From Paludibacteraceae bacterium (GTDB lineage Bacteria; Bacteroidota; Bacteroidia; Bacteroidales; Paludibacteraceae), in the NCBI GenBank assembly GCA_036308065.1, contig JAXJWL010000148.1:1-61529 (forward strand): DNA of 61,529 nt, written 5' to 3'. Positions 9,381 through 58,776 of the stretch are shown piece by piece. The notes beneath the pieces were generated by a model that ran no database searches, was not told the origin of the DNA, and saw only the letters and a program-made list of their open reading frames with translations. How positions within the stretch are numbered: position 1 is the stretch's first letter; each line of letters starts with the position of its first letter. The position numbers were made by a program, and so were the translations under genes.

Positions 9381-10211
9381 ATGACTAGAGAAGAACTTTT
9401 TGAAAACATCAAACGCAAAAGATCATTTCTTTGCGTTGGTTTAGATACAGATATCAATAAAATTCCTGAGCATCTATTCGAAGACGAAGATGCTATGTTT
9501 GCTTTCAACAAAGCTATCATCGATGCTACAGCAGACCTTTGCGTGGCATATAAACCAAACCTTGCTTTCTACGAAAGCCTAGGTATTGCAGGTTGGGAAG
9601 TGCTAGAACGCACAGTAGAATACATCCGTGCAAACTACCCAGACCAATTTATCATTGCTGACGCAAAACGTGGCGATATTGGCAACACATCTGCTATGTA
9701 TGCTCGTTGCTTCTTCGGCAACATGGATTTCGACACAGTAACAGTTGCTCCTTATATGGGTGAAGATAGTGTTTCTCCATTCCTTACCTACCCTGGTAAA
9801 TGGGTTACTCTACTTGCTCTTACATCAAACAAAGGTGCATTCGACTTCCAATTTACAGAAGACAAAGAAACTGGCAAAAAACTATTTGAACAAGTATTAG
9901 AAACTTCTAAAAAATGGGGTAACGAAGACAATATGATGTATGTAGTAGGTGCAACTAAAGCAAATATGCTACAAGACATCAGAGCAATTATCCCAAACAA
10001 TTTCCTACTTGTTCCTGGTGTTGGAGCACAAGGTGGTAGCCTAGAAGCTGTTGCAGAATACGGTATGAACGACCAATGTGGTCTTCTTGTAAACTCTTCT
10101 CGTGCCATCATTTATGCAGATAGCACAGAAAACTTTGCAGAAGCAGCTCGCGCAGAAGCACTAAAAGTGCAACAAGAAATGGATGCGCTTTTAACTAAAA
10201 AAGGAATCTAA
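9381..10211 (+). CDS. pyrF: Orotidine 5'-phosphate decarboxylase (type 2)
   Basis: [10 protein letters not shown] active-site motif. 276 aa fits the long type-2 PyrF. Confidence 0.9.
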
Positions 10212-11476: not shown

Positions 11477-12523
11477 ATGGAATTTTCAGCTTTACAAATT
11501 GCAACATTATTAGGTGGCACTATTGAGGGCGACCAAAACGTACTTGTAAGCAATTATTCTAAGATAGAAGAAGGCAAACCAGGAACACTTTCATTCCTTG
11601 CAAATCCTAAATACGAGAACTATATTTACGAAACAAATGCTAGTATTGTTCTTGTAAACAACGATTTTAAACCTTCAAAACCAATAAAATCTACCCTTAT
11701 TAGGGTGCCAAACGCATATCTAGCACTAGCAAAACTATTGCAGTTTGCAGAAAAACACAAACCTCGTAAAACAGGTATAGACAAAACTGCTAAGATAGAA
11801 CGTTCGGCTAAAATAGGTAAAAATGTATATATCGGTCCATTCGTTTACATTGGAGAGAATGTGGTGATTGAAGATGGCGTGCAAATTTATTCTCATTCAT
11901 CTGTAAACGATTTTGCAAAAGTTGGAGCTGATACCAAGATTTACAATTCTGTGGTGATTTATCACGAATGCGTAGTAGGTAAAAATTGTATTATCCACGC
12001 AAACACAGTGATTGGTTCTGATGGATTTGGTTTTGCAAAAAATCCAGACGGAAGCTACTTCAAAATGCCACAAAATGGAAATGTTATCATAGAAGATAAT
12101 GTAGAGATAGGTGCTGGCACCACAATCGACCGTGGTAGTATGGGTTCTACTATTTTAAGAAAAGGTGTAAAAATAGACAACCAAATACAAATAGCACACA
12201 ATGTGGAAATAGGCGAAAACTCAGCCATGGCAGCATGCTCAGGTATTGCAGGTTCCACAAAAGTGGGCAAAGACTGTATCATTGCTGGTATGGTTGGTAT
12301 TTCAGGTCACATCCAAATAGCAGACAACACTACAATTGGTGCATTCTCTGGCGTAAGCAACACAATCAAAGAACCAGGACAAATCTACCAAGGTGCAGTG
12401 GCAATTCCTATTATGAAAAACAAACGTTCATTTGCTGTTTATCGCAATCTGCCAGATTTGAGCAAAACAGTTTACGAACTAGAAAAACAAATAAAAGAAC
12501 TAAAAGAGGCGCTAAATAAATGA
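11477..12523 (+). CDS. lpxD: UDP-3-O-acylglucosamine N-acyltransferase
   Basis: Left-handed beta-helix hexapeptide repeats and an LpxD N-terminal domain. It sits immediately upstream of lpxC and lpxA. Confidence 0.88.
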
Positions 12524-13422
12524 GTAAACAATTTACCATAAATGAGTCCTTTTCACTTTCAGGGAAAGGTCTTCACACAGGGTTAAACATTGAAGCAAAA
12601 TTTCTTCCTGCAGCAGAAAACACAGGAATAGTATTTAAAAGAGTAGACCTAGAAGGTGCTCCAGAAATTCCTGCCCTAGCCACTTACGTTTCTGCGACAG
12701 AAAGAGGAACAGTACTAAAAAAAGACAATGCTTCAGTGAGCACTATAGAGCATATTATGTCTGCGTTTATGGCGCACGGCATCGACAACTGCGTCATAGA
12801 AATAAACGCACCTGAAGTGCCTATCCTAGACGGCAGTGCAAAATTTGTGGTAGAAGCACTCAACAAAGTAGGCAAAAAAGAACAAAATGCTGAAAGAAAA
12901 TTCTTTGAAGTAAACGAAGAAATGACTTTCACCAATGGCAACACCACCATTAAACTTCTTCCTGCCGACGATTTCTGCGCAGAAGTTACTATCGACTTCA
13001 ACTCTCCTATTCTAAAAAAACAAACAGCAAGCATTTGCGGATTTACAAACTACGACAAAGAAATTTCATCTGCTCGTACATTTGTTTTCGTGAGAGAAAT
13101 AGCGCTTCTTCTTCAACACAACCTTATTAAAGGTGGAGACTTAGACAACGCCATTGTTATCTACGACCAACCACTTACCAAAGAAGCAATCACAGATATT
13201 TGCAATAAAATAAATGTGCCTGTAATCGAAGTAGAAGATTTAGGTTATTTAAATCACAGACCTCTAGAATGGGAAAACGAACCTGCTAGACACAAACTTC
13301 TAGACCTTATTGGCGACCTTTCACTTATTGGTCTTCCTATTAAAGGTAAAATAGTAGCAGAAAAACCTGGTCACGGATACAACACATTCGTGGCACAAGA
13401 AATTTTAAAACTTATAAAATAA
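12520..13422 (+). CDS. lpxC: UDP-3-O-acyl-N-acetylglucosamine deacetylase (stand-alone, no FabZ domain)
   Basis: An LpxC fold sequence that ends [20 protein letters not shown] at 300 aa. It overlaps the lpxD stop by 4 nt. Confidence 0.88.
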
Positions 13423-15869: not shown

Positions 15870-15882
15870 ATTTAAATAACAG

Positions 15883-15906
15883 AAAAGAGGCATCAAAGCC
15901 TCTTTT
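15883..15906. terminator. Bidirectional intrinsic terminator between convergent glnS and the R-M operon
   Basis: 9-bp stem AAAAGAGGC / GCCTCTTTT with a 6-nt loop, flanked by A and T runs. Confidence 0.75.
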
Positions 15907-15921
15907 CTTCTTTTTACAATA

Positions 15922-16617
15922 TCACATCATAAATCTCTCCAATTTATTCTTCCATCTTTCCCAATCCGGCATTTCCTTTTGCAATAGTTCCCAAAAAGCT
16001 TTTGTATGATTAGGATGTACTAAATGACATAGTTCGTGAGTTATCACATACTCTATACACGGACGTGGTGCCATTATAAGCCTTGTATTGAGTATTATTT
16101 TTCCATTAGGAGTACAACTCCCCCAGCGGTTTTTCATTTCAAGAATGCACACAGAAGATGGTATCACTTCATATTTTGCAAACTTCTCTATAATAGGTTG
16201 TGCATACTCTAAAAATTTTTCGTTTGCACGCACCTTATACCATTGCTTCATTAAGTCTCTAACGTTATTTTTAGACGTGCATACCACCTCAAAAAATCTT
16301 CCCTTATACTTCACACTATTGTAATTACCTTCCTCCACTTTAAGAAGAAATTGGCGACCTAAATAATAATGAGATTCACCACTAATGTACCTTTTCTCTG
16401 GCATTGCAGGTCCTAATTCACTAAAAAATTGCAATTGGCGCCATATCCATCTTAAACGTTTTTGCAACTTAACATCTATTACATCGCTCTGCGTTCCAAT
16501 AGGTGCCAATACCTCAACATTTCCTGTAGGATATACCTTTATACCAAGTGTCTTTCTATCAGAAAAAATCACTTTATAAGGTATTATATTTGCTCCAAAA
16601 TTCAATCTACCCTCCAT
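15922..16617 (-). CDS. M48/DUF45 (YgjP-like) zinc metallopeptidase, last gene of the Type I R-M operon
   Basis: HExxH motif (ITHELCHLVHPNH), 231 aa. Its ATG overlaps the hsdR stop (TAATG). Confidence 0.8.
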   Translation of the reverse strand: MEGRLNFGANIIPYKVIFSDRKTLGIKVYPTGNVEVLAPIGTQSDVIDVKLQKRLRWIWRQLQFFSELGPAMPEKRYISGESHYYLGRQFLLKVEEGNYNSVKYKGRFFEVVCTSKNNVRDLMKQWYKVRANEKFLEYAQPIIEKFAKYEVIPSSVCILEMKNRWGSCTPNGKIILNTRLIMAPRPCIEYVITHELCHLVHPNHTKAFWELLQKEMPDWERWKNKLERFMM

Positions 16618-19600
16618 TACTTATACCACTTTTTAGCTACCTCAACACAATTATCAATAATAGAATCCATATTATCAAAGGTTATTGGAAGGCCCTTTTC
16701 TCGCTTTATTTCATCTATTAAATAATCTTCAATATTAAGTTTTATCTCAGAAATTACTTTGTCTTTAAAGGTCCAATCTACCATTACTTTTTCATCTATA
16801 AAAATAGAAGACTTAATAATTTTATCTATTTCGTTAGCAGTAACTAAAGCCAACTCTACCTCATTAAACGAAGAATTATTTTTACAAACCTGTTTATAAA
16901 CCTCTAAAGTAAGACCATAATATGCTTTTGCTGCAGGATTGTCTTGTAACGATTCAGGTATTTCACTATCGGTGTGACTCAATACCTTATGCATTATATT
17001 CTCTGCTTTTTGTAGATATTCTGCCTCTGTGATACGACCTTGCCTATATTCCTCAATAGTCTCTTGTAACATTTTAGAAAACTTCTTAAAGAAAGCAGGG
17101 TCGGTATCTAATACTTCTGAAATGTATTTGGTAGTACGAGATGCAATAGTATCAGCTTTTGCAGCCTTCCCAACAACCTTTTCTACCTCTTCTGCAAAAA
17201 GTTCTTTATCAAAGATATTAACCAAGTTTGTTATAATCTCAACATCACCACTTTCTATATGCGTATCTATCAGCTTTTGTATCTGCCCCTCATATTGACT
17301 ATAGTTCACCGTATCTGAATAACGTTCTTGCACAGCTTTTCTCAATCGTAAGAACATCTTCAAATCTTCTTTGTAGTGATTTATTATTTCTATAGGAGTT
17401 GATTTATAAAAATCTATAGATGCAAGAGAAATTTTCAATGTTTTTGCAAAGGCTGTTAGTTTGTCATAAAACTCTGATCTTATATTTTCTTCTCGCAATA
17501 TTTCACCCAGAGACTCTAAATCTTGCTTATTTTTGGCAGTTTTTAGTATATCCCAAACATCACTATGGCGTTGAGGCAATTTAGCAACTTCAAGTGCTAT
17601 ATTTGAATATATTCCAACCACATCCTCTTCGTCGAAGTCTGAATAAATATCCAATGCCTCATTTAAGTTGGCAAAGACGCCATAATAATCAATAATATAA
17701 CCAAACTCCTTGTCATCACATACTCTATTAACACGGGCTATTGCTTGCAATAAGGTATGTTCTCTTAATTTTCTATCAAGGTATAATACTGTATTTTTAG
17801 GTTCATCAAAGCCAGTTAATAATTTATCTACAACAATTATTATCTCTGGACTTTCTCCATTTTTAAAACGGTTTATTATATTTTGCTCATACTTAGTAGC
17901 CGTTCCATGTTCATCCATCATACGCTTCCAGAAAGCTACTTCAGCATTCGAGGTTTCTCCGTATGCATCATCTTCACCTTCGCGAGTATCTGGTGATGTA
18001 ATCAATACTTCAGAAGATACAATCCCAATCTCGTCTAAATATTTTTTATACAAAATCGCTATGCGCTTGCGAGGTGCTACCAATTGACCTTTAAACTTAG
18101 AGCCTTGCCAATTGTCACGAAAATGTTGCGATATATCCCATGCAATTGCATAGATTCGTTGCTCCGTTTGGTTTATTTGATCCGCCCTACTAAATTTCTT
18201 TTTTAAATCGGCGCGTTGAGCATCTGTCATCCAATCGCAAATCCGTTCAAAATAACGGTCAATAGAGTCTGCATGTACTTTTTGTGGAACCATTCTGCCT
18301 TCATATAATAAAGGTACGACCGCTCCGTCTTTTACTGCCTGATCAACAGTATAAATAGGCTTAATAATACCTCCAAATCTTGCTGCGGTACTTTTCTCTT
18401 TCTTCATAAGTGGGGTACCCGTCATGGCAATAAAGCAAGCATTGGGCAAGGTCCTTTCCATTTTTATAGCCATTTCACCATACTGGCTTCTATGACCCTC
18501 GTCTATCAAAACAAATATATTCGCATCTGTCAATGGTGCTTTCATCCTATTAACAGCTGCATCAAATTTATTTATTATAGTAGTAATAATAGTAGAACGA
18601 TTACTTTCTAATAATTTCACTAAATTGCTACCTGTTGTAGCATTTTCTACTTGAACCTGACACTTCTTAAATGTTGCAGTTATTTGTCTATCTAAATCGG
18701 TACGGTCTGTTACTAGTATAATACGTGGATTCTTAATGCTCTTGTCTAAGATGATAGCCTGTGCCAATAGTACCATCGTTAGTGATTTCCCCGAACCTTG
18801 CGTATGCCAAATCACTCCTCCTCTACGTTTTCCACCCTCAATATTGCGCACACGTTCCATTACTTTTTCTACCGCAAAAAACTGTTGGTATCTTGCAATT
18901 TTCTTTACTCCATCATCAAACAACGTAAAACGATACATTAGTTGAAGTAAGCGTTCTGGTCGGCATAAATTATACAAATAAGCATCTTGAACAGACGGAA
19001 TTTTAGGTAAACCATATTGTTCTCCCTCTTCTGCTACCATCATATAACTGGATTCACTAGAATATGTTCTCTGATTTACCTTTTCCGACAATTTATAACG
19101 ATATAGTTCCTCTGCCGTTTTATCTACAAACTGCTCTACCCACTTGTTCCAAAACTTTTTAGGGGTTGCTGTGGTTGCATAGCTCACGTCGTTCACATTG
19201 GTAGCCAACAAAAGGGTGGAATACACGTATAAAGCACGAATTCCGTCTTCCTTTTGGTTTCGTAAATGTTGTGAAATAGCTTGGTCCAATGAATCTGTTA
19301 TATCAGGTCTTTTACATTCTATTACACACAATGGAATGCCATTTACAAACAAAACAATATCTGGACGATATGTTTCACTCATACCAGCTCTGCTTACTGC
19401 ATACTCCTCTGTTACATGAAATACATTATTTTCAATATTATTCCAATCTATATACTGCATCACATAACTCTTCTTATCTCCATCTACAATTTGTTCTACC
19501 GTTTTCCCTGCAGTTAAAAGGTCGTAGGCCGATTGAGCAGCAGTAATATAACCCTCCGACATAGGCAAGTTTTTCAGAGCATCTACACCTGACGCAATGT

Positions 19601-19817
19601 TTTGTTCAGAAAACAATGTTGTGCGCCAACTACTCACTTGTACTGTATTTATTTTTGCCAATTGTTTACGCAATACAGCTTCCAATAATACATTACTAGT
19701 ATTACCTCCACGTAGTTCCATTGCCTCATCTGGCGATAGATACGTATAACCAAGCTTTTTTAGCATATTTAAAGCTGGTATTTGGCTTATATGGTTTTCT
19801 TTAAATGAGAGGGTCAT
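16617..19817 (-). CDS. hsdR: Type I restriction enzyme R subunit (endonuclease/translocase)
   Basis: PD-(D/E)xK-like nuclease region (RPDIVLFVNGIPLCVIECKRP), helicase motif I (TQGSGKS) and motif II (LIDEGHRSQ), 1066 aa. Confidence 0.93.
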   Translation of the reverse strand: MTLSFKENHISQIPALNMLKKLGYTYLSPDEAMELRGGNTSNVLLEAVLRKQLAKINTVQVSSWRTTLFSEQNIASGVDALKNLPMSEGYITAAQSAYDLLTAGKTVEQIVDGDKKSYVMQYIDWNNIENNVFHVTEEYAVSRAGMSETYRPDIVLFVNGIPLCVIECKRPDITDSLDQAISQHLRNQKEDGIRALYVYSTLLLATNVNDVSYATTATPKKFWNKWVEQFVDKTAEELYRYKLSEKVNQRTYSSESSYMMVAEEGEQYGLPKIPSVQDAYLYNLCRPERLLQLMYRFTLFDDGVKKIARYQQFFAVEKVMERVRNIEGGKRRGGVIWHTQGSGKSLTMVLLAQAIILDKSIKNPRIILVTDRTDLDRQITATFKKCQVQVENATTGSNLVKLLESNRSTIITTIINKFDAAVNRMKAPLTDANIFVLIDEGHRSQYGEMAIKMERTLPNACFIAMTGTPLMKKEKSTAARFGGIIKPIYTVDQAVKDGAVVPLLYEGRMVPQKVHADSIDRYFERICDWMTDAQRADLKKKFSRADQINQTEQRIYAIAWDISQHFRDNWQGSKFKGQLVAPRKRIAILYKKYLDEIGIVSSEVLITSPDTREGEDDAYGETSNAEVAFWKRMMDEHGTATKYEQNIINRFKNGESPEIIIVVDKLLTGFDEPKNTVLYLDRKLREHTLLQAIARVNRVCDDKEFGYIIDYYGVFANLNEALDIYSDFDEEDVVGIYSNIALEVAKLPQRHSDVWDILKTAKNKQDLESLGEILREENIRSEFYDKLTAFAKTLKISLASIDFYKSTPIEIINHYKEDLKMFLRLRKAVQERYSDTVNYSQYEGQIQKLIDTHIESGDVEIITNLVNIFDKELFAEEVEKVVGKAAKADTIASRTTKYISEVLDTDPAFFKKFSKMLQETIEEYRQGRITEAEYLQKAENIMHKVLSHTDSEIPESLQDNPAAKAYYGLTLEVYKQVCKNNSSFNEVELALVTANEIDKIIKSSIFIDEKVMVDWTFKDKVISEIKLNIEDYLIDEIKREKGLPITFDNMDSIIDNCVEVAKKWYK

Positions 19818-19850
19818 AGTGATTATTATTTAGGTTTTTGTAAGATCACT

Positions 19851-19889
19851 TTCCTGACGTCAGGAAGATGAACATGTTCCTGACGTCAG
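19851..19889. promoter_or_regulatory. Two TGACGTCA-centred dyad sites in the hsdS-hsdR intergenic spacer
   Basis: A 16-bp perfect palindrome TTCCTGACGTCAGGAA lies at 19851-19866. A second copy TTCCTGACGTCAG (10-bp palindrome core) lies at 19877-19889. Their centres are 26 bp apart. Confidence 0.6.
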
Positions 19890-19899
19890 CAATATGATA

Positions 19900-21105
19900 T
19901 TATGAAACTTTTACTCTTGTTTTGCCTGTTAGTAATTGTTGCATTAAACCTTGTTTTTGATGACGTAATGCTTCAATTTTTTTACGTTGTGTTTCTATTT
20001 CCTTATCGGCTGATGTAAGTACCGATGCGATTGCTTTTTGTTCGGTTAGAGAAGGTATAAAAACTTTCACCTTACTAAAGTCATGAAATTTACAATTTAA
20101 CGTATCTCCAACTAGACCTTGAGAATGTGTCCAAAAATCATATACAACTCTTGATAACTTTAATAAGACAGAAATAAAAAAAGGATCAATATTAGACTTT
20201 GGAATCACTATGGTATAAGCAGGACTTACAATTCCTTCTATGGTAGATAAAGCACTTCGTCCTTGCCACATTCTCATCGTATTATAACCTATATCATTGG
20301 GACAAATTCGTTTGTATTTTGATTTATCTTCATTGGAGATATCCTTCTTATCCGATTCTGATTGCATAATAACACCTCTTTCTGCTGTAATAGACAGAAG
20401 AGGTAAATACTCGACATTACATTCATTACGTTCCTCAAAAACTTCACCTAATTCTATTTTCTTCCATGGTTCTGTAAATCCAGGAAGGCGAGTTTTACCT
20501 GTTAGCAGACGTTGCATAAGCCCGCGTTTACGAAGCTCTAACTTTTCTATCAACTTACTTTGCTTTTCTATAGCATCATCCCACGTACACAATATCTCTG
20601 CTATTTTTATCTGCTCCGCAAGAGGTGGGAGGGCAAGTCTATATGGAATAATATGTTTATTATTTATCTGTGGTATAGTAGAAGTATCTGCTATTTTAAA
20701 TAACTTTTCATAGATAATTTTAAAGTATAAATAATCTCCACAGACATCTTTTCTAGGAGTAATAGCCATCATATTACTATCCATATAAATTTCACAGCCT
20801 GCAATTCTTACTTTATTATTTAAAATAGCAGCTCCTCTCTTCGGGAATATTATACTCCCTTTCTGAATTAAACTACGAACATCATTAGAATACTCACGAC
20901 TGAAAAATTGGAATTTCTCACAATTATTCATATCCTCAACCTTAATATATGGGTATTTCCCTTTTTCTTCTAATCTATATATGGAAGGACTCTCACCACT
21001 TGTTATAAACACTAAATTTCCAAGTGTAGTCACCTCCCACTCTTCTGGAATTATCCCAACAACAGAGTCTTTATATCCTTGCGGTATGTTATTTTTATCT
21101 TTCAT
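19900..21105 (-). CDS. hsdS: Type I restriction-modification specificity subunit (two target-recognition domains)
   Basis: 401 aa. It has two TRDs, each followed by a conserved coiled-coil region (PPLAEQIKIAEIL...LMQRLLTGKTRL and PSLTEQKAIASVL...LMQQLLTGKTRV). Confidence 0.9.
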   Translation of the reverse strand: MKDKNNIPQGYKDSVVGIIPEEWEVTTLGNLVFITSGESPSIYRLEEKGKYPYIKVEDMNNCEKFQFFSREYSNDVRSLIQKGSIIFPKRGAAILNNKVRIAGCEIYMDSNMMAITPRKDVCGDYLYFKIIYEKLFKIADTSTIPQINNKHIIPYRLALPPLAEQIKIAEILCTWDDAIEKQSKLIEKLELRKRGLMQRLLTGKTRLPGFTEPWKKIELGEVFEERNECNVEYLPLLSITAERGVIMQSESDKKDISNEDKSKYKRICPNDIGYNTMRMWQGRSALSTIEGIVSPAYTIVIPKSNIDPFFISVLLKLSRVVYDFWTHSQGLVGDTLNCKFHDFSKVKVFIPSLTEQKAIASVLTSADKEIETQRKKIEALRHQKQGLMQQLLTGKTRVKVS

Positions 21106-21703
21106 TTATTTTAATTTTCTTTAAATACATATTAAAAGCCTCTTCATACTCCTCTTTAATGTACACATAACCACTTAAGGCTCTTATCTCGCTATCGTCC
21201 AAAGTCATTTCACTATAAAAGTCTTTTTCAACAATTGTGTTTACTAATACATTCTTTGCACTATCTACTATTATATCCATTAAGGTATCTATGTTTATAG
21301 GATTATTCAACCTCATTGTATATGGCAATGATTGTAATGCATATCCAAATGCCTCTGCATAATTTCCTTTTTCATGATGGTTTATTGCCCAAGTAAAAGC
21401 TATTAAGTGCCTTGACTGATATACACTATTTTCTATTAATAATTTTTGTTTTTCTATTTCACCTTCTAGTTTATCAAGTTCAGAAAGTTTATTTCTAATC
21501 TCTATTGTGTTATAAATCTGCCAACCCACAACAAAAGTCACGATAATTGCAAGCAAAGCTACTATAACTCCAATAAATGTTTCTATTCCGATAACAGAGA
21601 GTTTCCATACATTACATACCCACAAAAGAATTAGAGTTACAACAGACACGATAGCTGTTATAGACAAACCAATAGCCCAATTAACTTTTCTATCTATTTT
21701 CAT
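21095..21703 (-). CDS. Uncharacterised 2-TM / coiled-coil / helical-domain protein embedded in the R-M operon
   Basis: 202 aa. There are two hydrophobic helices (about residues 8-30 and 37-62), a heptad-like segment (NKLSELDKLEGEIEKQKLLIEN) and an ~100-aa helical C-terminal part. The start is 9 nt after the dinD-like stop, and the gene overlaps the hsdS start by 11 nt. I recognise no family. Confidence 0.6.
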   Translation of the reverse strand: MKIDRKVNWAIGLSITAIVSVVTLILLWVCNVWKLSVIGIETFIGVIVALLAIIVTFVVGWQIYNTIEIRNKLSELDKLEGEIEKQKLLIENSVYQSRHLIAFTWAINHHEKGNYAEAFGYALQSLPYTMRLNNPINIDTLMDIIVDSAKNVLVNTIVEKDFYSEMTLDDSEIRALSGYVYIKEEYEEAFNMYLKKIKINER

Positions 21704-21712
21704 ATCAAAACA

Positions 21713-22579
21713 TTATTTATCACTATCTTTTTTATTCTTGTTTTCTTTCAACATCTTTTTTTGTTTAGTTTCAATGCTCTTAATACTTTCTGCCACAGGC
21801 AAGTCTTCTGGCATTGTACCTCCTAACTCTTTAATGGTTTGACGAACCTTTCTACCTACCTCAAAATGAGTTTTGTTTGCATTGAGTTTTCCTTTTATAT
21901 TTTCTCTGCGTAACTTTTCTTCTGTTTGCGTTGCACGGAAAAGATTTGCAGCTAACTCAGTACTTCCCATGTGGTCTAGAATCTTCTGACTTTTCTTTAA
22001 ACCTTTTCTTGCATGAATTTCTTTTGCACCAAGTCCACCATACAATCCTTGATAACCATAATTCTGAAAAATCGCATAATCGCGAGGTTCTATTACACCG
22101 GCATCTTTTGCTGCGCTAGCCAACTGAGAATTATGTTTTAGTAATTCTTCTCGTAAAAACAGGCGTTTCTCTTCTTCTGTGGACAACTGATTATACTCAT
22201 CCATTTGCTGCACCTCAGCAATGCGTGTTTGTATAGCAAAATAGGTCTGTGCTTGGGCTACTATTACCTTATTTGGGTCTGCATTTTGAACAGTAAGATA
22301 ACAAGCATAGCGGGTAAGTTTTATCGTTTCTATAGGACGAACCGCTCCACGAGCTATTGTAATCATTTCGGTGACGTCACCGAAATGTTCAACGACCTCA
22401 TTTGCACTATTAACACAGGCTTCCTTAGCTTTATTTATAACAGCCAAAAAGTTTCTATAATCAGCATAACCTAATACACGCGCTAATTCTCTTGATGACC
22501 AATATTCTACACCATTTTCGTCTATTTTTCGAATACTCTCAAAAATCGACACAGTTTCTTTTGTTAACTTCGTATTCAT
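21713..22579 (-). CDS. dinD: DNA-damage-inducible protein D (DinD)-like protein
   Basis: ENGVEYWSSRELARVLGYADYRNFLAVINKAKEAC ... LTRYACYLTVQNADPNK ... AQAQTYFAIQTR closely parallels the E. coli DinD N-terminal region. 288 aa. Confidence 0.75.
   Translation of the reverse strand: MNTKLTKETVSIFESIRKIDENGVEYWSSRELARVLGYADYRNFLAVINKAKEACVNSANEVVEHFGDVTEMITIARGAVRPIETIKLTRYACYLTVQNADPNKVIVAQAQTYFAIQTRIAEVQQMDEYNQLSTEEEKRLFLREELLKHNSQLASAAKDAGVIEPRDYAIFQNYGYQGLYGGLGAKEIHARKGLKKSQKILDHMGSTELAANLFRATQTEEKLRRENIKGKLNANKTHFEVGRKVRQTIKELGGTMPEDLPVAESIKSIETKQKKMLKENKNKKDSDK
22364..22387. repeat. 24-bp perfect palindrome CATTTCGGTGACGTCACCGAAATG inside the dinD-like CDS
   Basis: Read directly from the sequence. 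It encodes HFGDVTEM on both strands and has the same TGACGTCA core as the hsdS-hsdR dyads. Confidence 0.9.
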
Positions 22580-22592
22580 AAGAAAAATTATT

Positions 22593-24119
22593 TTAGATTC
22601 CCAACTCTTTTAAATACTCATTCATTTGTTTTCTTACTTCTGCAAGTTCTGTTTCAAGAGTTTCAATTTCTTGCTGAAGAGCAACTATATCTATTCCTGC
22701 TTCTTCTTCGTAAGTATCTACATATCGAGGGATATTAAGATTATAATTGTTTTCTTGTATTTCATCACAAGTTGCTACATATGCATATTTGTCTTCTACC
22801 ACACCTACACCAAGTGAAGATTCTGTAAATTTACGATATGTAGAAACAATATGCTCTATATCTATATCACGCAGTTTATTTTGATTTTTACCATTTTCAA
22901 ACTCTCTACTTGCATCTATAAACAGCACATTATTAGATTTTTTAGACTTGTTGAATATTATAATAGCGGCAGGAATACCTGTTCCGTAAAACAGGTTTGC
23001 AGGCAAACCAATCACAGCTTCTAACAAGTTTTCGTCAATGGTTTGTTGGCGAATTTTTCCCTCGCTTGCCCCTCTAAACAAGACACCATGTGGTATAACT
23101 ACACCCACTTTGCCATGTTCATTTGCCACTTCCAACATGTGACTAATAAATGCCCAATCACCCTTACTTTTAGGAGGAACACCACGCCAAAAACGGTTGT
23201 ACTTATCATTTGGCGCTTCTTCTGCACCCCATTTTTCCAAAGAAAAAGGAGGATTTGCCACAACTGTATCAAATTTCATCAGAGCATCACCATCCTTTAA
23301 TTTAGGATTTCGCAAAGTATCTCCCCAACGTATTACAGCACTATCAAAACCATGCAATAACATATTCATCATAGCCAATGCCCATGTACTTCCATTTAAT
23401 TCTTGTCCGTAAAGCGAAAAATTATCAGACCCAACTTCTCTACCTGCTTTTATCAAAAGCGAACCAGAACCACAAGTAGGGTCACAAATGCGAGAACCAG
23501 GTGCACTTTTTGTTAATTTAGCAAGCAATGTTGATACTTCTTTAGGGGTGAAAAATTCCCCAGCTTTTTTCCCAGCGTCACTTGCAAAATGTTCTATCAA
23601 GAACATATATGCATCACCAATCACATCGTTATGTTCCAAGTGAGATTCATCAAATTGTAATTTTGGGTCCGCAAAATCATCAAGTAATGTTTTTAGTCGA
23701 ACATTCCTATCTTTAACTTCACCAAGATTACTACTATTAAAACTAATATTTCTGAAGATACCACTTCCATCTTCACTATTAAGTTTTTCTCTATTGGCAT
23801 TTTCCAAATCAACCAAAGCTATATCTATCAATTCACCTATATTTGGCTCGTTACGATTTTCGTACAAATAATAGAACGAACTTGTTGCTGGAATCTGAAA
23901 ACGCTCACGACGCATAGCACGTTGTGTACGTTCTTCATCACCATCATATCGTTGTAAATATGCTTCATATTTTGACTTATTTACATCACTAATGTATTTA
24001 AGAAAAAGCATCGTTAAGATATAATCTTTGTACTGATTAGGATCTACCACCCCGCGAAATGTATCACAGGCATTCCATACAACTTTGTTAATGTCCTCTT
24101 GGGTTATTTTTGTGCTCAT
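22593..24119 (-). CDS. hsdM: Type I restriction-modification N6-adenine DNA methyltransferase subunit
   Basis: AdoMet motif (DPTCGSGSLL), catalytic NPPF (VVANPPFSLEKW) and an HsdM N-terminal domain. 508 aa. Confidence 0.93.
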   Translation of the reverse strand: MSTKITQEDINKVVWNACDTFRGVVDPNQYKDYILTMLFLKYISDVNKSKYEAYLQRYDGDEERTQRAMRRERFQIPATSSFYYLYENRNEPNIGELIDIALVDLENANREKLNSEDGSGIFRNISFNSSNLGEVKDRNVRLKTLLDDFADPKLQFDESHLEHNDVIGDAYMFLIEHFASDAGKKAGEFFTPKEVSTLLAKLTKSAPGSRICDPTCGSGSLLIKAGREVGSDNFSLYGQELNGSTWALAMMNMLLHGFDSAVIRWGDTLRNPKLKDGDALMKFDTVVANPPFSLEKWGAEEAPNDKYNRFWRGVPPKSKGDWAFISHMLEVANEHGKVGVVIPHGVLFRGASEGKIRQQTIDENLLEAVIGLPANLFYGTGIPAAIIIFNKSKKSNNVLFIDASREFENGKNQNKLRDIDIEHIVSTYRKFTESSLGVGVVEDKYAYVATCDEIQENNYNLNIPRYVDTYEEEAGIDIVALQQEIETLETELAEVRKQMNEYLKELGI

Positions 24120-24120
24120 A

Positions 24121-24669
24121 TTATAGATTGTTTATTATTTTACTTTCAAATAATTGACTACGTTTTTGCATTATTGCTTGACACAACATTTGTTCACGTT
24201 TGTACAACTTTGCCAATTGCAAACATTGTTGCTGCTTCTCTACAGATGGTATTGGGATTTCAATCTCCCCTAGCACATTCTTTGATATTGACAAAATTGC
24301 ACTACCTTTTGCTTGTTGCATCAATATTCTTTGCGTTCTTGACAAATTAAGAAACCACGCCACATAAGCAGGCAATACATTTTCTTTATCGTTTATACGT
24401 AATACCAAAAATGAGGAAGAAGCCACAGCTTTATATCCCATTTCTGGAACCTCTACACACTGATTCTTACCACCCTTGCAAACTACTAATAAATCACCAC
24501 TATTTAACATATACTTATCACTCACCTCTATAGTAGGACACAACGAAACATCCACATTTCCTTCATCATCAAAATCACTTTGCTGTAAATACACTGCATT
24601 TGGAGTTGGAGATTTTTTTGCAAAAACCCCTGTCTGAACAATTGCAATATCATAAATCTTTGTCTTCAT
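24121..24669 (-). CDS. Half-size HsdS-like specificity protein (single TRD plus one conserved helix)
   Basis: 182 aa with the TRD pattern (GDLLVVCKGG..., FLNLSRTQRILMQQAKGSAILSISKNVLGEIEIPIPSVEKQQQ). It abuts the hsdM start with a 1-nt gap. Confidence 0.7.
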   Translation of the reverse strand: MKTKIYDIAIVQTGVFAKKSPTPNAVYLQQSDFDDEGNVDVSLCPTIEVSDKYMLNSGDLLVVCKGGKNQCVEVPEMGYKAVASSSFLVLRINDKENVLPAYVAWFLNLSRTQRILMQQAKGSAILSISKNVLGEIEIPIPSVEKQQQCLQLAKLYKREQMLCQAIMQKRSQLFESKIINNL

Positions 24670-24688
24670 CTTATATTAAATTGCTCTA

Positions 24689-24696
24689 CAAAAATA
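24689..24696 (-). promoter_or_regulatory. Candidate -7 box (TATTTTTG) for the R-M operon
   Basis: Matches TAnnTTTG on the minus strand, 20 nt upstream of the half-hsdS ATG. Confidence 0.4.
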
Positions 24697-24871
24697 TAAA
24701 TTACATTTTTATTATGCAAATTTTTCTTAGTATATTTTCTACTAATTTCTATAGTAAATGTCATTATTCTCTATAAAGAACTAGTAATGAAGATATTAAC
24801 AACTAGAAACACAAAAATGCGAATGCTCCAATTAGTGCATCCGCATTTTACTTGTTAAAATTTGAATTGTA

Positions 24872-26059
24872 TTACTCGATTATACCTAGTAATCTAGCGT
24901 TTTTAGCGATTTTTTCTACTGCTTCGTCGATTTGGTCGAATGTATGTGTAGCCATTAGAGAGATACGAATTAGAGTATCTTGAGATGGTACAGCAGGAGA
25001 AACCACTGGGTTTACGAATACGCCATCATCCATAAGCATACGTGTTAGGCGGAATGTTTTTTCGTTGTCACGTACATATAGAGGAATAATAGGTGTGGTT
25101 GTGTGACCAGTTTCAAATCCTTTATCTTTGAAGGCTTGAAGCATTCTGTGAGTGTTGTCCCACAATGCTTTTTGACGCCATTTTTCTTCTTCCATTACTT
25201 CTAGAGCAGCAAGCACTGCACCTGCAGCAGCAGGAGTGATACTAGCACTGAAAATAAGTGTACGAGAGTTATGTTTTAGATAGTTGATTACGTCTTTGTT
25301 TGAAGCGATGAAACCACCGATAGTAGCAAGAGATTTACTAAATGTACCCATTACTAGTTCCACGTCGTTTTGCACTCCGAAGTGTTCACAAACCCCTGCA
25401 CCTGTTTCACCAAATACACCTAGAGAGTGGGCTTCGTCAATCATAATAGAAGCGTTGTATTTTTTAGCCAAATCTACCATTTCTGGAAGTTTTGCTAAGT
25501 CGCCTTCCATTGAGAATACACCGTCTGCAACAATAAGTTTAATCTTGTCTGGTTCGCATTGTTGAAGGAATTTTTCTAGTTGTTCCATATCGTTGTGACG
25601 ATATTTAAACTGTTTTGCCATGCTAAGACGAGAACCTTCAATAATAGAAGCGTGATTTAAACGGTCTAATAAAAGGTAATCTTCTCTACCACCAAGGCAA
25701 GGAACAACACCTGAGTTTACTGTAAAACCAGTAGCATAAACCAACGCCTCTTCCTTTCCTACTAGTTTTGCTAGTTTTTCTTCTAGTTCAATGTGAATAT
25801 CCAATGTTCCGTTTAAGAAACGAGAACCTGCGCAACCTGTACCATATTTTTCAACAGCCTTGATAGAACCTTCTTTAATCTTTGGGTGATTTGTAAGACC
25901 TAGATAACTGTTTGAACCAAACATTAATACTGGTTTACCATCAATTTGAACCACTGTGTCTTGGTCTGAACTGATTGGTCTAAAATATGGATAAACTCCA
26001 GCTGCTTTTGCTTTTTGAGGCACATCATATTGTGCTAAGCGTTCACTTAATATACTCAT
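24872..26059 (-). CDS. spt: Alpha-oxoamine synthase family PLP enzyme, probably serine palmitoyltransferase
   Basis: 395 aa. The N-terminus (YDVPQKAKAAGVYPYFRPI...MFGSNSYLGL) and the FSKSL PLP-lysine region resemble Bacteroidales SPT. KBL or BioF activity cannot be excluded from sequence alone. Confidence 0.6.
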   Translation of the reverse strand: MSILSERLAQYDVPQKAKAAGVYPYFRPISSDQDTVVQIDGKPVLMFGSNSYLGLTNHPKIKEGSIKAVEKYGTGCAGSRFLNGTLDIHIELEEKLAKLVGKEEALVYATGFTVNSGVVPCLGGREDYLLLDRLNHASIIEGSRLSMAKQFKYRHNDMEQLEKFLQQCEPDKIKLIVADGVFSMEGDLAKLPEMVDLAKKYNASIMIDEAHSLGVFGETGAGVCEHFGVQNDVELVMGTFSKSLATIGGFIASNKDVINYLKHNSRTLIFSASITPAAAGAVLAALEVMEEEKWRQKALWDNTHRMLQAFKDKGFETGHTTTPIIPLYVRDNEKTFRLTRMLMDDGVFVNPVVSPAVPSQDTLIRISLMATHTFDQIDEAVEKIAKNARLLGIIE

Positions 26060-26104: not shown

Positions 26105-26629
26105 TTAGGAATTTTTATTTAATTCCACCAATTCTACAGGATAATTTGTGTATAGAATTTTATTTTCATTATCTACCTCAGCAATAAAATCCTCTACTGC
26201 AGGTAACAAAATCTCACCATCTTCGGTCTTAATACCAAACAAGATATTTACAGTTTGGTCGTCTACAAAAGAGATTTCGCCCAATTTTTCATCGGCATTT
26301 ACCACAGTAAAACCAACAAAATATTCATACGAAAGCATTTCATCGTCACTCATAAGCTCAATAGGCAGATAAATATCCTTTCCTATGAGTTTGCGCGCCT
26401 CTGTTTCGTCTTCTATATCCTCAAGAGTAAGAAGTACCGAATTTGAGGATTTAATCCTTATATTAGAAACAAAAAAAGGCACAAATATACCGTCCATATC
26501 AAGAACGATATATTCTGCCATATCTATTGTATCTGCATTAATATTACAATTCAACTCACCGTTTACACCGTGAGTCTTATTTATCTTCCCTGCTCTAAAA
26601 ACCTCTTTTTCTAGAATCATAGACATCAA
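26105..26629 (-). CDS. rimM: 16S rRNA processing protein RimM
   Basis: GKINKTHGVNGEL N-terminal motif and a PRC-barrel C-terminus, 174 aa. Confidence 0.85.
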   Translation of the reverse strand: MMSMILEKEVFRAGKINKTHGVNGELNCNINADTIDMAEYIVLDMDGIFVPFFVSNIRIKSSNSVLLTLEDIEDETEARKLIGKDIYLPIELMSDDEMLSYEYFVGFTVVNADEKLGEISFVDDQTVNILFGIKTEDGEILLPAVEDFIAEVDNENKILYTNYPVELVELNKNS

Positions 26630-27018
26630 TTTACAGAAAGTATTCTATCTACCACAAATTCACTCACACCACGCCAAGGAAGCGCATCAATATATTCTTT
26701 ATAATGTAGTTCAACTTCCTTGCCACTGCAACGCATTAGTGAGTCTGCAATAGCTTGGTCTTCTACAGAAAACTTAAACTCGTAAGATTGAATAGTGCCA
26801 GGGGTATTTGCCTTAAAACCATTTTGAATCAATTTTCCCTCATAGGTTTTAAATACGTAGCCTTTTTTCACTAAATAATTTAGTTCGCCAGACTTCACAC
26901 CTTCGCCAAACACAAAGTAGTAACGGAAATATAAAAATCCACTTAAGGCTAACACCAAAACAAGCACTACTATAGAAATTATCTTTGCTTTCATATCAAT
27001 TTTAGGTTTATCATACAA
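26626..27018 (-). CDS. Hypothetical membrane-anchored protein
   Basis: An ORF with an N-terminal TM segment (AKIISIVVLVLVLALSGFLYF). It overlaps the rimM start by 4 nt. I recognise no family. Confidence 0.5.
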   Translation of the reverse strand: MYDKPKIDMKAKIISIVVLVLVLALSGFLYFRYYFVFGEGVKSGELNYLVKKGYVFKTYEGKLIQNGFKANTPGTIQSYEFKFSVEDQAIADSLMRCSGKEVELHYKEYIDALPWRGVSEFVVDRILSVN

Positions 27019-27122
27019 AAATAATGATTATTGATAGAAATCAAAAGAAATAGGGATAAAAGTTGATAAACAGAAGTAAAAAAAGAGACAATAAAAAAGC
27101 AAGTCGTTTTGACTTGCTTTTG

Positions 27123-27197
27123 TGGGCGATGACGGATTCGAACCGCCGACCCTCTGCTTGTAAGGCAGATGCTCTGAACCAGCTGAGCTAATCGCCC
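27123..27197 (-). tRNA. tRNA-Val (anticodon TAC)
   Basis: Cloverleaf built by hand: acceptor GGGCGAT/ATCGCCC, D-stem GCTC/GAGC, anticodon stem TCTGC/GCAGA with loop CTTACAA, T-arm GGCGG-TTCGAAT-CCGTC. CCA is not encoded. A terminator hairpin follows at 27097-27122. Confidence 0.92.
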
Positions 27198-27238
27198 TTT
27201 TTGTTGTTATTGAGTTGCTTTATCTCTCAATTGCGATG

Positions 27239-27270
27239 CAAAGATAGCACACATTTTTGGACTGTGCAAA
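27239..27270 (-). promoter_or_regulatory. Candidate Bacteroidota promoter for tRNA-Val (-33 TTTG, 20-nt spacer, -7 TATCTTTG)
   Basis: On the minus strand, TTTG lies at 27267-27270 and TATCTTTG at 27239-27246. Confidence 0.5.
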
Positions 27271-27441
27271 TTTTTCAGCAACTTTTTTTCAAAAAAAATG
27301 CATTTTTTTGAAAAAACACCGTTTTTTGCCCGTTTTTTACCGATAAACAAAAGAGCGACACTAAAAAGTATCGCTCTTTGAATATTTTTGAATAAAATGT
27401 TTTTTAAAGAAGGGATTTTTAGGCTCCCCTTAAAATACATT

Positions 27442-28893
27442 TTATAGGCTGTCGCCGAAATCTTCGCGGAATTTAGCAACCAATTTTTCTTGCCAATCTG
27501 AAGTTGGACGAAGACGACCAAAGAAGAAACGAAGAACTTTAGGTTCGTCGTAGAATTCTAGGCCACCGATAAGGTCACGGTTTTCGTATACCCATTTAAT
27601 ACGGTCGATAGCGTAGTTCACTTGAGATAGAGTGTAAACACGACGTGGCATAGCCATACGTACAAGTTCTAGTTCTGCGTAACGTTCGCTACCGTCTGGG
27701 TTACGTTGTTCTGATAGAGTACCACGTTCCATACCACGAACACCACTAGCAATGTAGATAGCAGCAGCAAGAGCAGCGGCTGGATAATCTGCGTGAGAAA
27801 GGTGAGGAAGAATTTCACTAGCATTTAAGTGACAACCAAGACCACCTGCAGGAACTACTACTGGCACACCAGCTTTTTGAAGTTCTTTCACCATATATTC
27901 AATGAAAAGAGGACCTTGAGAAATGATGTCGAAGTCCATAGTTTCTTGAAGACCTACGGTAATAGCTTCCATTTCACGAACAGACATACCACCGTATGTT
28001 AAGAAACCTTCGTATAGTGGAATAAATTCTTTCATTTTTAAGCAAAGTGCTTCGTCGCGCATTGCGATACCACCACCACGGCCGAAACCAAGTTTACGAG
28101 CAGAGAAGTAGATAATATCCATTGCGTTAGCAATTTTTAAAGTAATATCTTCGATAGACATATCTTTAGCTGCTTCTTCACGCACTTTGATGAAATATAA
28201 GTTGTCTTGTAGAAGAGATGCGTCAAGCACAGTCATGATACCGTTTTGTTTACAGATATCAGCTACAGCTAGCATATTTTCCATAGAAAGTGGTTGACCA
28301 CCAACAAGGTTTGTACCAGCTTCGATACGTACGAATGCTACGTTTTCAGCACCTAGAGTTGCGATACGTTCACGAAGTAGGTCTAGGTCGAAGTTACCTT
28401 TAAATGGGCTTAAATCGTGTGGATCAAGACCTTCTTTTACGATAAGTTCTTCTACTGTACCACCAAGACGTGTAATGTGAGCTTTAGTGGTGGTAAAGTG
28501 GAAGTTCATAAGAACTGTTTGACCTGGTTTAACAAATGCTTCTGCCAAGATATTTTCACAAGCACGACCTTGGTGAGCTGGCAAGAAGAAGTTTGTGTTA
28601 AACATTTTACCAACTTGAGCAGATAGGCGGTTGAAAGTTTCAGAACCAGCATAGCTATCGTCTGCTATAAGCATAGCAGCTTGTTGTCTATCAGACATGG
28701 CATTTACACCAGAGTCTGTTAGCATATCCATGAAGATGTCTCTATTTTGAAGAAGGAAGGTATTGTTACCTGCTTCATTCATAAATTTATAACGGTCTTC
28801 TACTTTTGGTAAGTTAAGTTTTTGTACAATACGTACCTTATGCATTTCTAACGGCATTTTTTCACCGTATGCAAGTTTAATTTCTTGGCTCAT
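27442..28893 (-). CDS. tnaA: Tryptophanase / tyrosine phenol-lyase family beta-eliminating lyase
   Basis: 483 aa. N-terminal region FLLQNRDIFMDMLTDSGVNAMSDRQQAAML..DDSYAGS parallels TnaA. The substrate (Trp or Tyr) is not resolvable by eye. Confidence 0.8.
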   Translation of the reverse strand: MSQEIKLAYGEKMPLEMHKVRIVQKLNLPKVEDRYKFMNEAGNNTFLLQNRDIFMDMLTDSGVNAMSDRQQAAMLIADDSYAGSETFNRLSAQVGKMFNTNFFLPAHQGRACENILAEAFVKPGQTVLMNFHFTTTKAHITRLGGTVEELIVKEGLDPHDLSPFKGNFDLDLLRERIATLGAENVAFVRIEAGTNLVGGQPLSMENMLAVADICKQNGIMTVLDASLLQDNLYFIKVREEAAKDMSIEDITLKIANAMDIIYFSARKLGFGRGGGIAMRDEALCLKMKEFIPLYEGFLTYGGMSVREMEAITVGLQETMDFDIISQGPLFIEYMVKELQKAGVPVVVPAGGLGCHLNASEILPHLSHADYPAAALAAAIYIASGVRGMERGTLSEQRNPDGSERYAELELVRMAMPRRVYTLSQVNYAIDRIKWVYENRDLIGGLEFYDEPKVLRFFFGRLRPTSDWQEKLVAKFREDFGDSL

Positions 28894-28905
28894 AATATTT
28901 ATATT

Positions 28906-44914: not shown

Positions 44915-44922
44915 TAGATTTG
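44915..44922 (+). promoter_or_regulatory. Candidate -7 box (TAGATTTG) for the ATPase gene
   Basis: Matches TAnnTTTG, 19 nt upstream of the ATG at 44941. This argues against the TTG start at 44920. Confidence 0.45.
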
Positions 44923-44940
44923 CTAAAAAATACAATTACT

Positions 44941-46389
44941 ATGAAACAATGTTTAATAGGTAGAGAAGTTGAACTAAAGTCACTTCAACAGTATATTAAT
45001 TCAGAACGTTCAGAATTTGTTGCTGTTTACGGCAGACGACGTGTCGGTAAAACATTTCTTATTCGTCATGCTGCTGAAGAAAAGTTTACATTCTTTATGA
45101 CAGGCGTTTACAAAGCCTCTAAATCTGAGCAACTAACAAACTTTGCTATAAGTTTGCAAAAATATTCTGGCTCAGATAGATTAATTTTGCCTAAAAATTG
45201 GATATTAGCCTTCTATGAACTTTCAAAATTTATTGAGAGTTTACCAGAGGGTAAAAAAATTATATTCATAGATGAGTTACCATGGTTAGACACTCCTAAA
45301 TCTGGTTTCATTGCTGCATTAGAAAATTTTTGGAATAGTTGGGCTGTTCTACGCAACGATATTAAACTTATTGTATGCGGTTCTGCTACTTCATGGATGA
45401 TTAACAATCTAATTAAAAGCAAAGGAGGTTTGCACAATAGACTTACTCATCACCTTGTTCTTCAACCATTTACATTAAAGGAAAGCGAAGAATATTTTAA
45501 AACATTTGGATTTGGTTATACAAGAAAACAAATTGCAGAATGTTATATGGCATTGGGTGGCATACCATTTTATATGTCAATGATGGATAAGTCTAAAAGT
45601 GTTTCACAAAATATTGATTATCTTTTCTTTGCAAATAATGCACCATTAAAAGAAGAATTTAATGATTTATATAAGGCATTATTTAAAAACTCTGCACCAC
45701 ACATTGACGTGGTAACAGCTCTAGCAACTAAAAACAAAGGACTTACTAGACAAGAAATCCTAAAAACAACAAAATTGCAAGATAACGGAGCTTTTAGTAC
45801 AATTCTAGAAGAATTGGAAGAATGCGGTTTTATAAGAGCCTATAGCCCTTTTGAAAAGAAAATCACATTGAATAATACTAGACAAAAAAACAATACCATC
45901 TACCAACTAGTAGATTTTTATACTTTGTTCTATTTCAACTTCATAAAACAAAACCACTATCATGATGAACACTTCTGGACTTCATCATATAATAGTCCTT
46001 TACACAACACATGGGCAGGACTATCATTTGAAATGTTGTGTCTAAACCATATCAACCAAATAAAGAATGCTTTAGGTATCACAGGCATCCAAGCATTAGT
46101 ATGTGCGTGGAGAAACCAAGAGCAAAATAATAAAACACAAATTGATATGCTTATTGACAGAAAAGATGACACAATCAATATATGTGAAATTAAATTTGCT
46201 AAAGACGAATTTGAAATAACAAAAGAATACGAAGCAAGTCTCAATAACAAAATAAATACATTTGCTAAAAGTTCTAATACAAATAAATCGCTAATGCTCA
46301 CAATGATTACTACTTTTGGAATAAAACCAAACATTCATAGTAACATTGTTCAGAACCAAATTTTATTGGAAGACTTATTTAAAGCATAA
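44941..46389 (+). CDS. AAA-type ATPase (archaeal-ATPase / DUF234-like architecture)
   Basis: Walker A GRRRVGKT, Walker B IIFIDELPW and a C-terminal region with a PD-(D/E)xK-like pattern (IDMLIDRKDDTINICEIKF). 482 aa counted from MKQCLIGRE. Confidence 0.7.
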   Translation: MKQCLIGREVELKSLQQYINSERSEFVAVYGRRRVGKTFLIRHAAEEKFTFFMTGVYKASKSEQLTNFAISLQKYSGSDRLILPKNWILAFYELSKFIESLPEGKKIIFIDELPWLDTPKSGFIAALENFWNSWAVLRNDIKLIVCGSATSWMINNLIKSKGGLHNRLTHHLVLQPFTLKESEEYFKTFGFGYTRKQIAECYMALGGIPFYMSMMDKSKSVSQNIDYLFFANNAPLKEEFNDLYKALFKNSAPHIDVVTALATKNKGLTRQEILKTTKLQDNGAFSTILEELEECGFIRAYSPFEKKITLNNTRQKNNTIYQLVDFYTLFYFNFIKQNHYHDEHFWTSSYNSPLHNTWAGLSFEMLCLNHINQIKNALGITGIQALVCAWRNQEQNNKTQIDMLIDRKDDTINICEIKFAKDEFEITKEYEASLNNKINTFAKSSNTNKSLMLTMITTFGIKPNIHSNIVQNQILLEDLFKA

Positions 46390-58775: not shown

Positions 58776-58776
58776 G

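Follow-up and report, generated by a model that had tools for sequence, protein, structure and literature searches.

Type I restriction-modification (R-M) systems combine an HsdM2-HsdS complex that methylates a bipartite DNA target with an HsdR2-HsdM2-HsdS complex that translocates and cuts unmodified DNA. We describe here an island of this type, comprising seven genes at 15922-24669 on the minus strand of a 61,529-nt contig from a Paludibacteraceae bacterium (GenBank assembly GCA_036308065.1, contig JAXJWL010000148.1; the contig as a whole is referred to as the window). Several described systems are close to it in part. The island RptR-RMS-DarTG-M48 (RRDM) of enteropathogenic Escherichia coli (EPEC) comprises seven open reading frames (ORFs), the last of which encodes an M48 peptidase that was named without an assigned function (PMC12255303). 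In a staphylococcal hsdRSMS variant, a specificity gene of ~190 aa with a single domain (hsdS_short) immediately precedes hsdM; it is conserved, never exchanges domains, and proved necessary in E. coli for methylation to be correct (PMC10030836). Type I operons with defence genes nested inside them are well known, including those with PrrC/EcoprrI, with TgvAB in Vibrio VPI-2 and with the "guilt-by-embedding" candidates (PMC12707154; PMC11411939; bioRxiv 10.1101/2024.01.29.577857). In addition, fusions of DinD to HsdS exist and still methylate, as shown by Btr190I of Bibersteinia trehalosi (PMC4996451).

The island shares features with each of these systems and differs from each. Like the RRDM island, it is a Type I island of seven ORFs on one strand, appears to be acquired, contains embedded accessory genes and ends in an M48/YgjP-like peptidase gene directly downstream of hsdR. 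In contrast to RRDM, there is no RptR gene, no TAGCTA repeat in the promoter region (24670-24900) and no DarTG in the hsdS-hsdR interval, which is an empty 82 nt; a short hsdS lies upstream, and a DinD-like gene and a gene for a protein with two transmembrane helices (2-TM) stand between hsdM and hsdS. An RptR-type operator was rejected on the absence of TAGCTA. The staphylococcal variant is matched by the short S of 182 aa, which lies 1 nt from hsdM, is conserved where the long HsdS differs and shows no domain exchange. However, hsdR is upstream in staphylococci and downstream here, the HsdR proteins are only 25% identical, and the short S proteins are barely similar. Furthermore, the staphylococcal loci have no embedded genes, and Staphylococcus xylosus pL1 has no peptidase next to the system. 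HsdM is 42% identical to that of the hsdS_short variant. Given the marginal homology and the different gene order, we treat the locus as analogous to the hsdS_short variant and not as a demonstrated member of its clade. Non-hsd genes are nested in the operon as in the embedded-defence class, but no validated embedded system is present. Likewise, a DinD homologue lies 5' of the specificity function as in the DinD-HsdS fusions, though as a separate polypeptide and with the 2-TM gene between DinD and hsdS.

We read the region, with a probability of roughly 0.7, as a Type I operon that is functional, was acquired horizontally and belongs to a widespread lineage, whose loci combine a five-gene kit with two cargo slots. 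The standard kit would consist of a short S-like subunit, HsdM, a full-length HsdS, HsdR and a YgjP/M48 zinc peptidase. The DinD-like and 2-TM proteins would each be an accessory module of its own, serving to reinforce restriction or to localise it; for the 2-TM protein, this would mean a membrane anchor or a membrane-damaging effector.

By each sequence criterion tested, the locus qualifies as a Type I R-M system. Domains were assigned by profile searches with Pfam, NCBIfam and PADLOC. The N6-adenine DNA methyltransferase subunit HsdM (24119-22593, 508 aa) carries HsdM_N and N6_Mtase domains, with matches to PF02384 (E = 4e-103) and PF12161, and scores 290.8 bits against TIGR00497 (cut-off 242.75); its motifs I (DPTCGSG) and IV (NPPF) are present. 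HsdS (21105-19900, 401 aa) is a full-length specificity subunit, in which two recognition domains are represented by two PF01420 stretches and a mosaic of conserved and variable regions is seen against a conspecific strain. The restriction/translocase subunit HsdR (19817-16617, 1066 aa) combines HSDR_N (PF04313), SWI2_SNF2 (PF18766), T1R_D3-like (PF22679) and T1RH-like_C (PF11867) domains, scores 471 bits against TIGR00348 and retains its catalytic motifs (PD...ECK, GSGKS, DEGH). Its nearest solved structure is the HsdR of EcoR124I, a family IC enzyme, with the match (E = 6e-34) confined to the motor region.

The seven ORFs are all intact and very probably form one operon, since they are tightly spaced between a single promoter and a single terminator. 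In operon order, they are the short hsdS-like gene (24669-24121, 182 aa), hsdM, the DinD-like gene (22579-21713, 288 aa, with an N-terminal Bro-N domain), the 2-TM gene (21703-21095, 202 aa), hsdS, hsdR and the YgjP-like, M48-annotated zinc metallopeptidase gene (16617-15922, 231 aa), in which the catalytic HExxH motif is intact as HELCH. Successive gaps are 1, 13, 9, -11, 82 and -1 nt. The 11-nt overlap is between the 2-TM gene and hsdS, and the hsdR/peptidase junction reads TAATG, so that the stop codon of hsdR and the start of the peptidase gene overlap. A promoter of the Bacteroidetes type (minus strand, 24720-24689) combines a -33 element TTTG (24720-24717), a 20-nt spacer and a -7 element TATTTTTG (24696-24689) that lies 20 nt upstream of the ATG of the short hsdS. 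It is the sole TAnnTTTG on the minus strand of the island with both a -33 element and a gene start no more than 450 nt downstream. At the other end, a bidirectional intrinsic terminator (15881-15908, 11-bp stem with T-runs on each side) is common to the island operon and glnS. A sequence-only reading of the same stretch had proposed this gene order and these spacings, which the ORF list matches exactly. It had also placed a TAnnTTTG box at 24689 and a bidirectional terminator at 15883, both of which were located, and its single transcription unit is the arrangement we judge very probable.

Position and composition identify the island as horizontally acquired. It is inserted between glnS and the spt/rimM genes. 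A search with GlnS assigns the organism to Paludibacteraceae. The island is absent from the three species representatives nearest to the source (L032, L001 and L020; GlnS identity 81-83%), where glnS and spt are directly adjacent and convergent, 28-80 nt apart. A single terminator hairpin is shared by glnS and spt in L020 and L032, and the gap in L001 is too short to hold one. In the source genome, spt has its own terminator hairpin at the other edge of the insertion (minus strand, 24813-24852; -18.5 kcal/mol, followed by a U-tract). The GC content of the island is 34.65%, compared to 38.25% in the rest of the window; no other 8.8-kb stretch of the 61,529 nt is lower, and the per-gene difference is significant (Mann-Whitney p = 4e-4). 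Present or absent at a conserved chromosomal site and deviant in composition, the region qualifies as a genomic island. Windowed GC thus agrees with what had earlier been judged by eye, and the synteny comparison bears out the insertion site that the sequence-only reading had suggested.

The island is older than the split between the source and its conspecific strains. Three conspecific metagenome contigs (L082-L084), in which GlnS and Spt are 100% identical as protein and about 93-95% identical as DNA, carry it at the same site. Most of the island is 91-99% identical to L082 as DNA, as high as the flanks; such core-like identity outside the replaced specificity stretches is what an island older than the strain split would show. 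Three stretches are lower. The two recognition domains of hsdS are effectively unalignable (about 40% DNA identity), and its central conserved region is 84% identical. In the 2-TM gene, the 3' half drops to about 80%, and from the 3' end of hsdM into the 5' end of dinD the identity is 82-88%. This pattern indicates that the specificity cassette was later replaced by recombination, with part of the neighbouring gene dragged along.

The kit is defined by comparison with related loci that show the same scaffold (L085, L086, L090-L125 and L171-L176). The recurrent order is short S, hsdM, slot 1, hsdS, slot 2, hsdR and peptidase. The short S lies upstream of hsdM in 14/14 distinct informative loci, and the peptidase downstream of hsdR in all ten that are informative. 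Both arrangements recur outside Bacteroidota. On Rhodobacter plasmid pEJ01, the order is short S, hsdM, RhuM, hsdS, a HAD hydrolase, hsdR and a SprT-annotated peptidase. On Klebsiella and E. coli plasmids, hsdM and hsdS are followed by YecA and a cold-shock-domain protein, or by nothing, and then by hsdR and M48; on these plasmids, HsdM is 58%, HsdR 40% and the peptidase 34% identical to the source proteins. In Geobacillus, the peptidase stands beside hsdR in convergent orientation. A peptidase homologue is present in 574 plasmid records. Given this invariance and this recurrence, the short S and the M48/YgjP peptidase are better read as standard kit parts of a Type I lineage than as passengers. 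That the two genes jointly define a phylum-crossing lineage with two cargo slots is a modest new point.

The slots differ in content. DinD occupies slot 1, between hsdM and hsdS, in roughly half of the loci found via the 2-TM protein; in the source genome, this slot contains both the DinD-like and the 2-TM gene. Slot 2, between hsdS and hsdR, contains most of the cargo of the relatives, with 0-4.5 kb of varied genes. For example, it is occupied by DUF4062 and SLFN/AlbA_2 ATPase genes in Prevotella sp. lc2012 and by an AAA_15/21 ATPase gene in a Bacteroidaceae metagenome-assembled genome (MAG). In the source, it is reduced to 82 non-coding nt with a strong hairpin. The DinD and 2-TM genes occur independently of each other in related loci, and an obligate pair was rejected on finding either without the other. 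From this distribution, DinD is clearly optional, and the 2-TM gene frequent but separable.

Some of the related loci are variable in their own right. Near-identical Bacteroidaceae islands differ in hsdS (L171, 9243-10198; L173, 9243-10544): the gene is split into ORFs of 72 aa and 246 aa in several contigs and is an intact 433-aa gene in another, a difference suggesting that the specificity gene was naturally inactivated or replaced. Slot 2 of these islands is variable as well, with an AAA_15/21 ATPase as cargo against a 230-aa ORF of unknown type. In L085 (GCA_045634045.1), the slot-1 DinD has decayed to three frame-shifted fragments (9469-9936) that are 81-86% identical to the source DinD. 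Between hsdS and hsdR of the same locus (11899-13374) lie a second DinD-like gene, divergent at 34% identity, and an additional ORF of 207 aa.

Several observations weigh against reading the region in this way. With respect to the arrival route, no integrase or recombinase gene was found in or beside the island, no boundary (att) direct repeats at its edges and no tRNA at the junction, the nearest being tRNA-Val (27122-27197), 2.4 kb off and beyond spt, rimM and one more gene. These absences rule against an integrase-mobilised island. With respect to the lineage, related loci were found via homologues of the 2-TM protein or of DinD, and the frequencies of these two genes in the scaffold are therefore biased; retrieval did not rely on the short S or the peptidase, whose frequencies are therefore unbiased. 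The similarity of the short S to staphylococcal hsdS_short is marginal (34% identity over 50 aa, pairwise E = 2e-4). In addition, a Bacteroides finegoldii plasmid (NZ_OY725910.1; L177, 11974-14030) carries a short S (32% identity) paired with an HsdM-like methylase, with no hsdR or long hsdS within 12 kb on either side, and this pair favours autonomous specificity over a cofactor role. Finally, the literature searched assigns no function to an hsdR-linked M48 peptidase.

Two roles were weighed for the short S. The protein, which consists of one recognition-domain-like region and a C-terminal helix, matches PF01420 and the PADLOC profile Specificity_I, and has no significant similarity to the long HsdS of the source. 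It would be a fixed member of the methyltransferase core, acting either as an assembly or fidelity cofactor or as a homodimer that confers a second, constant specificity. Under the latter explanation, a short S dimer with HsdM2 would recognize a fixed palindromic motif, in addition to the variable asymmetric motif read by the long HsdS, and the locus would methylate and restrict at both. We regard this as a real, if tentative, possibility. Engineered and natural half-HsdS proteins dimerise to active enzymes with palindromic targets (PMC6158711; also references cited in PMC10030836), and the isolated pair of the B. finegoldii plasmid is consistent with such autonomy. The short S also diverges faster than its methyltransferase partner, being 53-72% identical where HsdM is 88-90% identical. 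However, the family aligns end to end from Paludibacteraceae to Rhodobacter, where a 197-aa "hypothetical" gene of pEJ01 is the homologue (27% identity, E = 4e-18). Divergence along this alignment is uniform and collinear, without the mosaic of conserved regions and variable domains that is typical of specificity subunits. Moreover, the short S is 99% identical in conspecific strains that exchanged both domains of the long HsdS, which is only 41% identical between the source and L082. In S. xylosus, the only motif detected was non-palindromic and depended on the short S (PMC10030836). Considering the two sides together, we lean slightly towards the cofactor role. Staphylococcus is not among the ten most frequent organisms of 58 short-S plasmid matches, and the B. 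finegoldii pair stands among polysaccharide-utilisation genes.

For the peptidase, the proposed role is in the control of HsdR. The protein matches the YgjP-like family PF01863 (E = 1.5e-58), has weak, sub-threshold similarity to WLM and SprT, and retrieves only proabylysin from the Protein Data Bank (PDB). The overlap of its start with the hsdR stop codon, its strict co-occurrence with hsdR and the need for proteolytic restriction alleviation, which is described for families IA and IB (PMC12707154), suggest that it may control HsdR or remove stalled HsdR complexes. It would then be a built-in counterpart of ClpXP-dependent restriction alleviation. The analogy with ArdC, a Spartan-like metalloprotease that counters HsdRMS, lends this idea weak support, as the protease activity of ArdC is not needed for anti-restriction. 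Searches of the literature for COG1451, DUF45 or YgjP in connection with Type I systems returned nothing useful.

The DinD-like protein matches its family models over the full length. It scores 393 bits against the NCBIfam equivalog NF008573 (cut-off 242), hits PADLOC candidate PDC-S13 (PDLC04919; E = 6e-117, residues 1-285) and also gives a match to phage family phrog_8036 (E = 1e-102). There are at least 8000 homologues, many of them about 84% identical, including some in MAGs labelled Bacteroidaceae or Bacteroidales by NCBI. Across related loci, the gene is present, absent, pseudogenised or relocated. The predicted structural model is poor (pLDDT 53), and the alignment behind it is shallow, with homologues of at least 83% identity only. 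No experimental report on PDC-S13 or DinD in defence was found in the literature. Since DinD-HsdS fusions methylate, a physical association of DinD with the Type I complex is suggested; PADLOC also holds a model for the fusion (PDLC03083).

By contrast with these annotated proteins, the 2-TM protein has no match in Pfam, PADLOC, PHROG or NCBIfam. At E <= 1e-3, its family comprises 1465 representatives, most of which by far are close to 200 aa in length, with an invariant second membrane helix (F-GVIVALLAIIVT--GWQI in the family alignment). In the AF2 model (pLDDT 90), a hairpin in the membrane is joined by a stalk helix of ~70 residues to a helical C-terminal bundle, and the fold search gave no PDB match better than E = 0.56. 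In Type I scaffolds, the gene almost always abuts or overlaps hsdS, and in the source its 3' half diverges together with the adjacent hsdS recognition domain. The tight tie of this uncharacterised family to hsdS in Bacteroidales is a further modest new point. About 17 homologues occur in loci without Type I genes, one of which (L129) adjoins an FRG-domain gene. Another (L149, 1322-16361) lies in a defence-like cluster with a Snf2/DrmD-like helicase, a Type IIG/PglX-like methyltransferase, a membrane-associated ORF of 740 aa, a GNAT-domain protein, an ASCH protein and a protein that weakly matches pAgo and pAgo-associated models. It is conceivable, at quite low probability, that the family, with a helical cytosolic domain and, in Bacteroidales, translational coupling to hsdS, is a new portable accessory of restriction-type defence, acting as a membrane anchor or a membrane-damaging suicide effector. 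If so, it would hold the Type I complex where foreign DNA enters, or would be freed as an effector when restriction is blocked, in which case it would be a membrane-based counterpart of PrrC.

A different explanation, put forward in the sequence-only reading, is that only hsdM, hsdS and hsdR form the enzyme and that the other four genes are independent passengers of a layered defence module (its heading counted three passengers and its text four). The island does carry genes other than hsdM, hsdS and hsdR, and a PADLOC check confirms that one of them matches a defence candidate. Its DinD and 2-TM genes fit the description of embedded accessories, the 2-TM family is also found in defence-like loci without Type I genes, and relatives carry clear cargo in the same operon, such as the ATPase genes of slot 2. 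The short S and the peptidase do not fit. Passengers would be expected to come and go, as DinD does; these two genes accompany hsdM and hsdR in each of the informative loci, as well as in other phyla, and such constancy counts against their being passengers. The junction with hsdR speaks against independence of the peptidase, and in the one system tested, correct methylation depends on hsdS_short (PMC10030836). As a result, we regard the proposal for all four genes as rather unlikely, and retain the embedded-accessory part of it within the five-gene kit reading.

It is highly improbable that the locus serves chiefly in epigenetic regulation rather than active defence, whether as a phase-variable methyltransferase or as a decaying remnant. 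Phase variation is frequent among Type I systems that have several hsdS genes (PMC7672463, PMC7394358), and hsdS is disrupted in some related metagenome variants (L171 compared to L173). However, a shufflon was rejected, as the two S genes share no inverted or long direct repeats and neither simple-sequence repeats nor a recombinase occur in or beside the island. The seven ORFs are intact with their catalytic motifs, and HsdR is 99% conserved between strains.

The 82-nt spacer between hsdS and hsdR contains an element with dyads (minus strand, 19841-19902), as had been noted from the sequence. It carries CTGACGTCAGGAA twice around GAACATGTTC, and its RNA is predicted to fold into a long hairpin (-28.3 kcal/mol, z = -5.98) with a perfect 13-bp core stem formed by CUGACGUCAGGAA and UUCCUGACGUCAG. 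There is no U-tract after the hairpin. Only close relatives have the element; L082 keeps the second dyad, and the first is degenerate. Rfam gave no match in the island, and outside it only the flanking tRNA-Val and one hit far below the gathering score; the spacer also has no RptR site. Outside this spacer, the decamer CTGACGTCAG is limited to near-identical and conspecific contigs, plus two further matches that are consistent with chance; being restricted in this way, it was rejected as a dispersed element. The most economical reading is that the hairpin would be an mRNA processing or stability element, letting the levels of HsdM and HsdS differ from those of HsdR and the peptidase. It may alternatively serve as a protein operator. 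For a Cheo box, the spacing of GAACATGTTC is wrong. SOS/LexA control via the dyads was rejected, as the Bacteroidetes motifs (GGA-N5-TCC and CTAA-N5-TTAG; PMC8565304) do not match the spacer; read by eye, neither the spacer nor the promoter region contains an exact copy of either. The nearest SOS-like site, CTAT-AGAAA-TTAG on the minus strand at 24754-24742, has one mismatch, lies 22-34 nt upstream of the -33 element and is probably due to chance.

Other features of the window were also recorded. Synteny with L082 stops just past a 130-aa ORF (26626-27018). Beyond 27018, the source has tRNA-Val, a tryptophanase-type beta-eliminating lyase and valS, whereas L082 continues with an ORF of 368 aa and a PKD-repeat protein of 2182 aa (window 27000-28900 compared to L082 1-4700). 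This break is a second strain-variable junction, adjoining a tRNA. An AT-rich ORF at 44920-46389 (GC 30.8%) with ATPase_2/AAA_14 domains lies beside a tyrosine recombinase/integrase gene (46474-47439) and may be a mobile or defence element. A tmRNA gene on the minus strand (58776-59170) encodes the tag peptide GENTYALAA.

On this account, the short hsdS and the hsdR-linked M48 genes would be better annotated as parts of a Type I lineage than as separate defence systems. The peptidase-linked core spans Bacteroidota, Proteobacteria and Bacillota, with the short hsdS seen in the first two. The hsdR-coupled zinc peptidase is a candidate built-in regulator of restriction, and together with the 2-TM family it adds two recurrent genes of as yet putative function. 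The two insertion slots of the scaffold could be mined for new defence genes. For the organism itself, the swapping of recognition domains among conspecific strains implies that methylation barriers differ within a single gut or rumen species.

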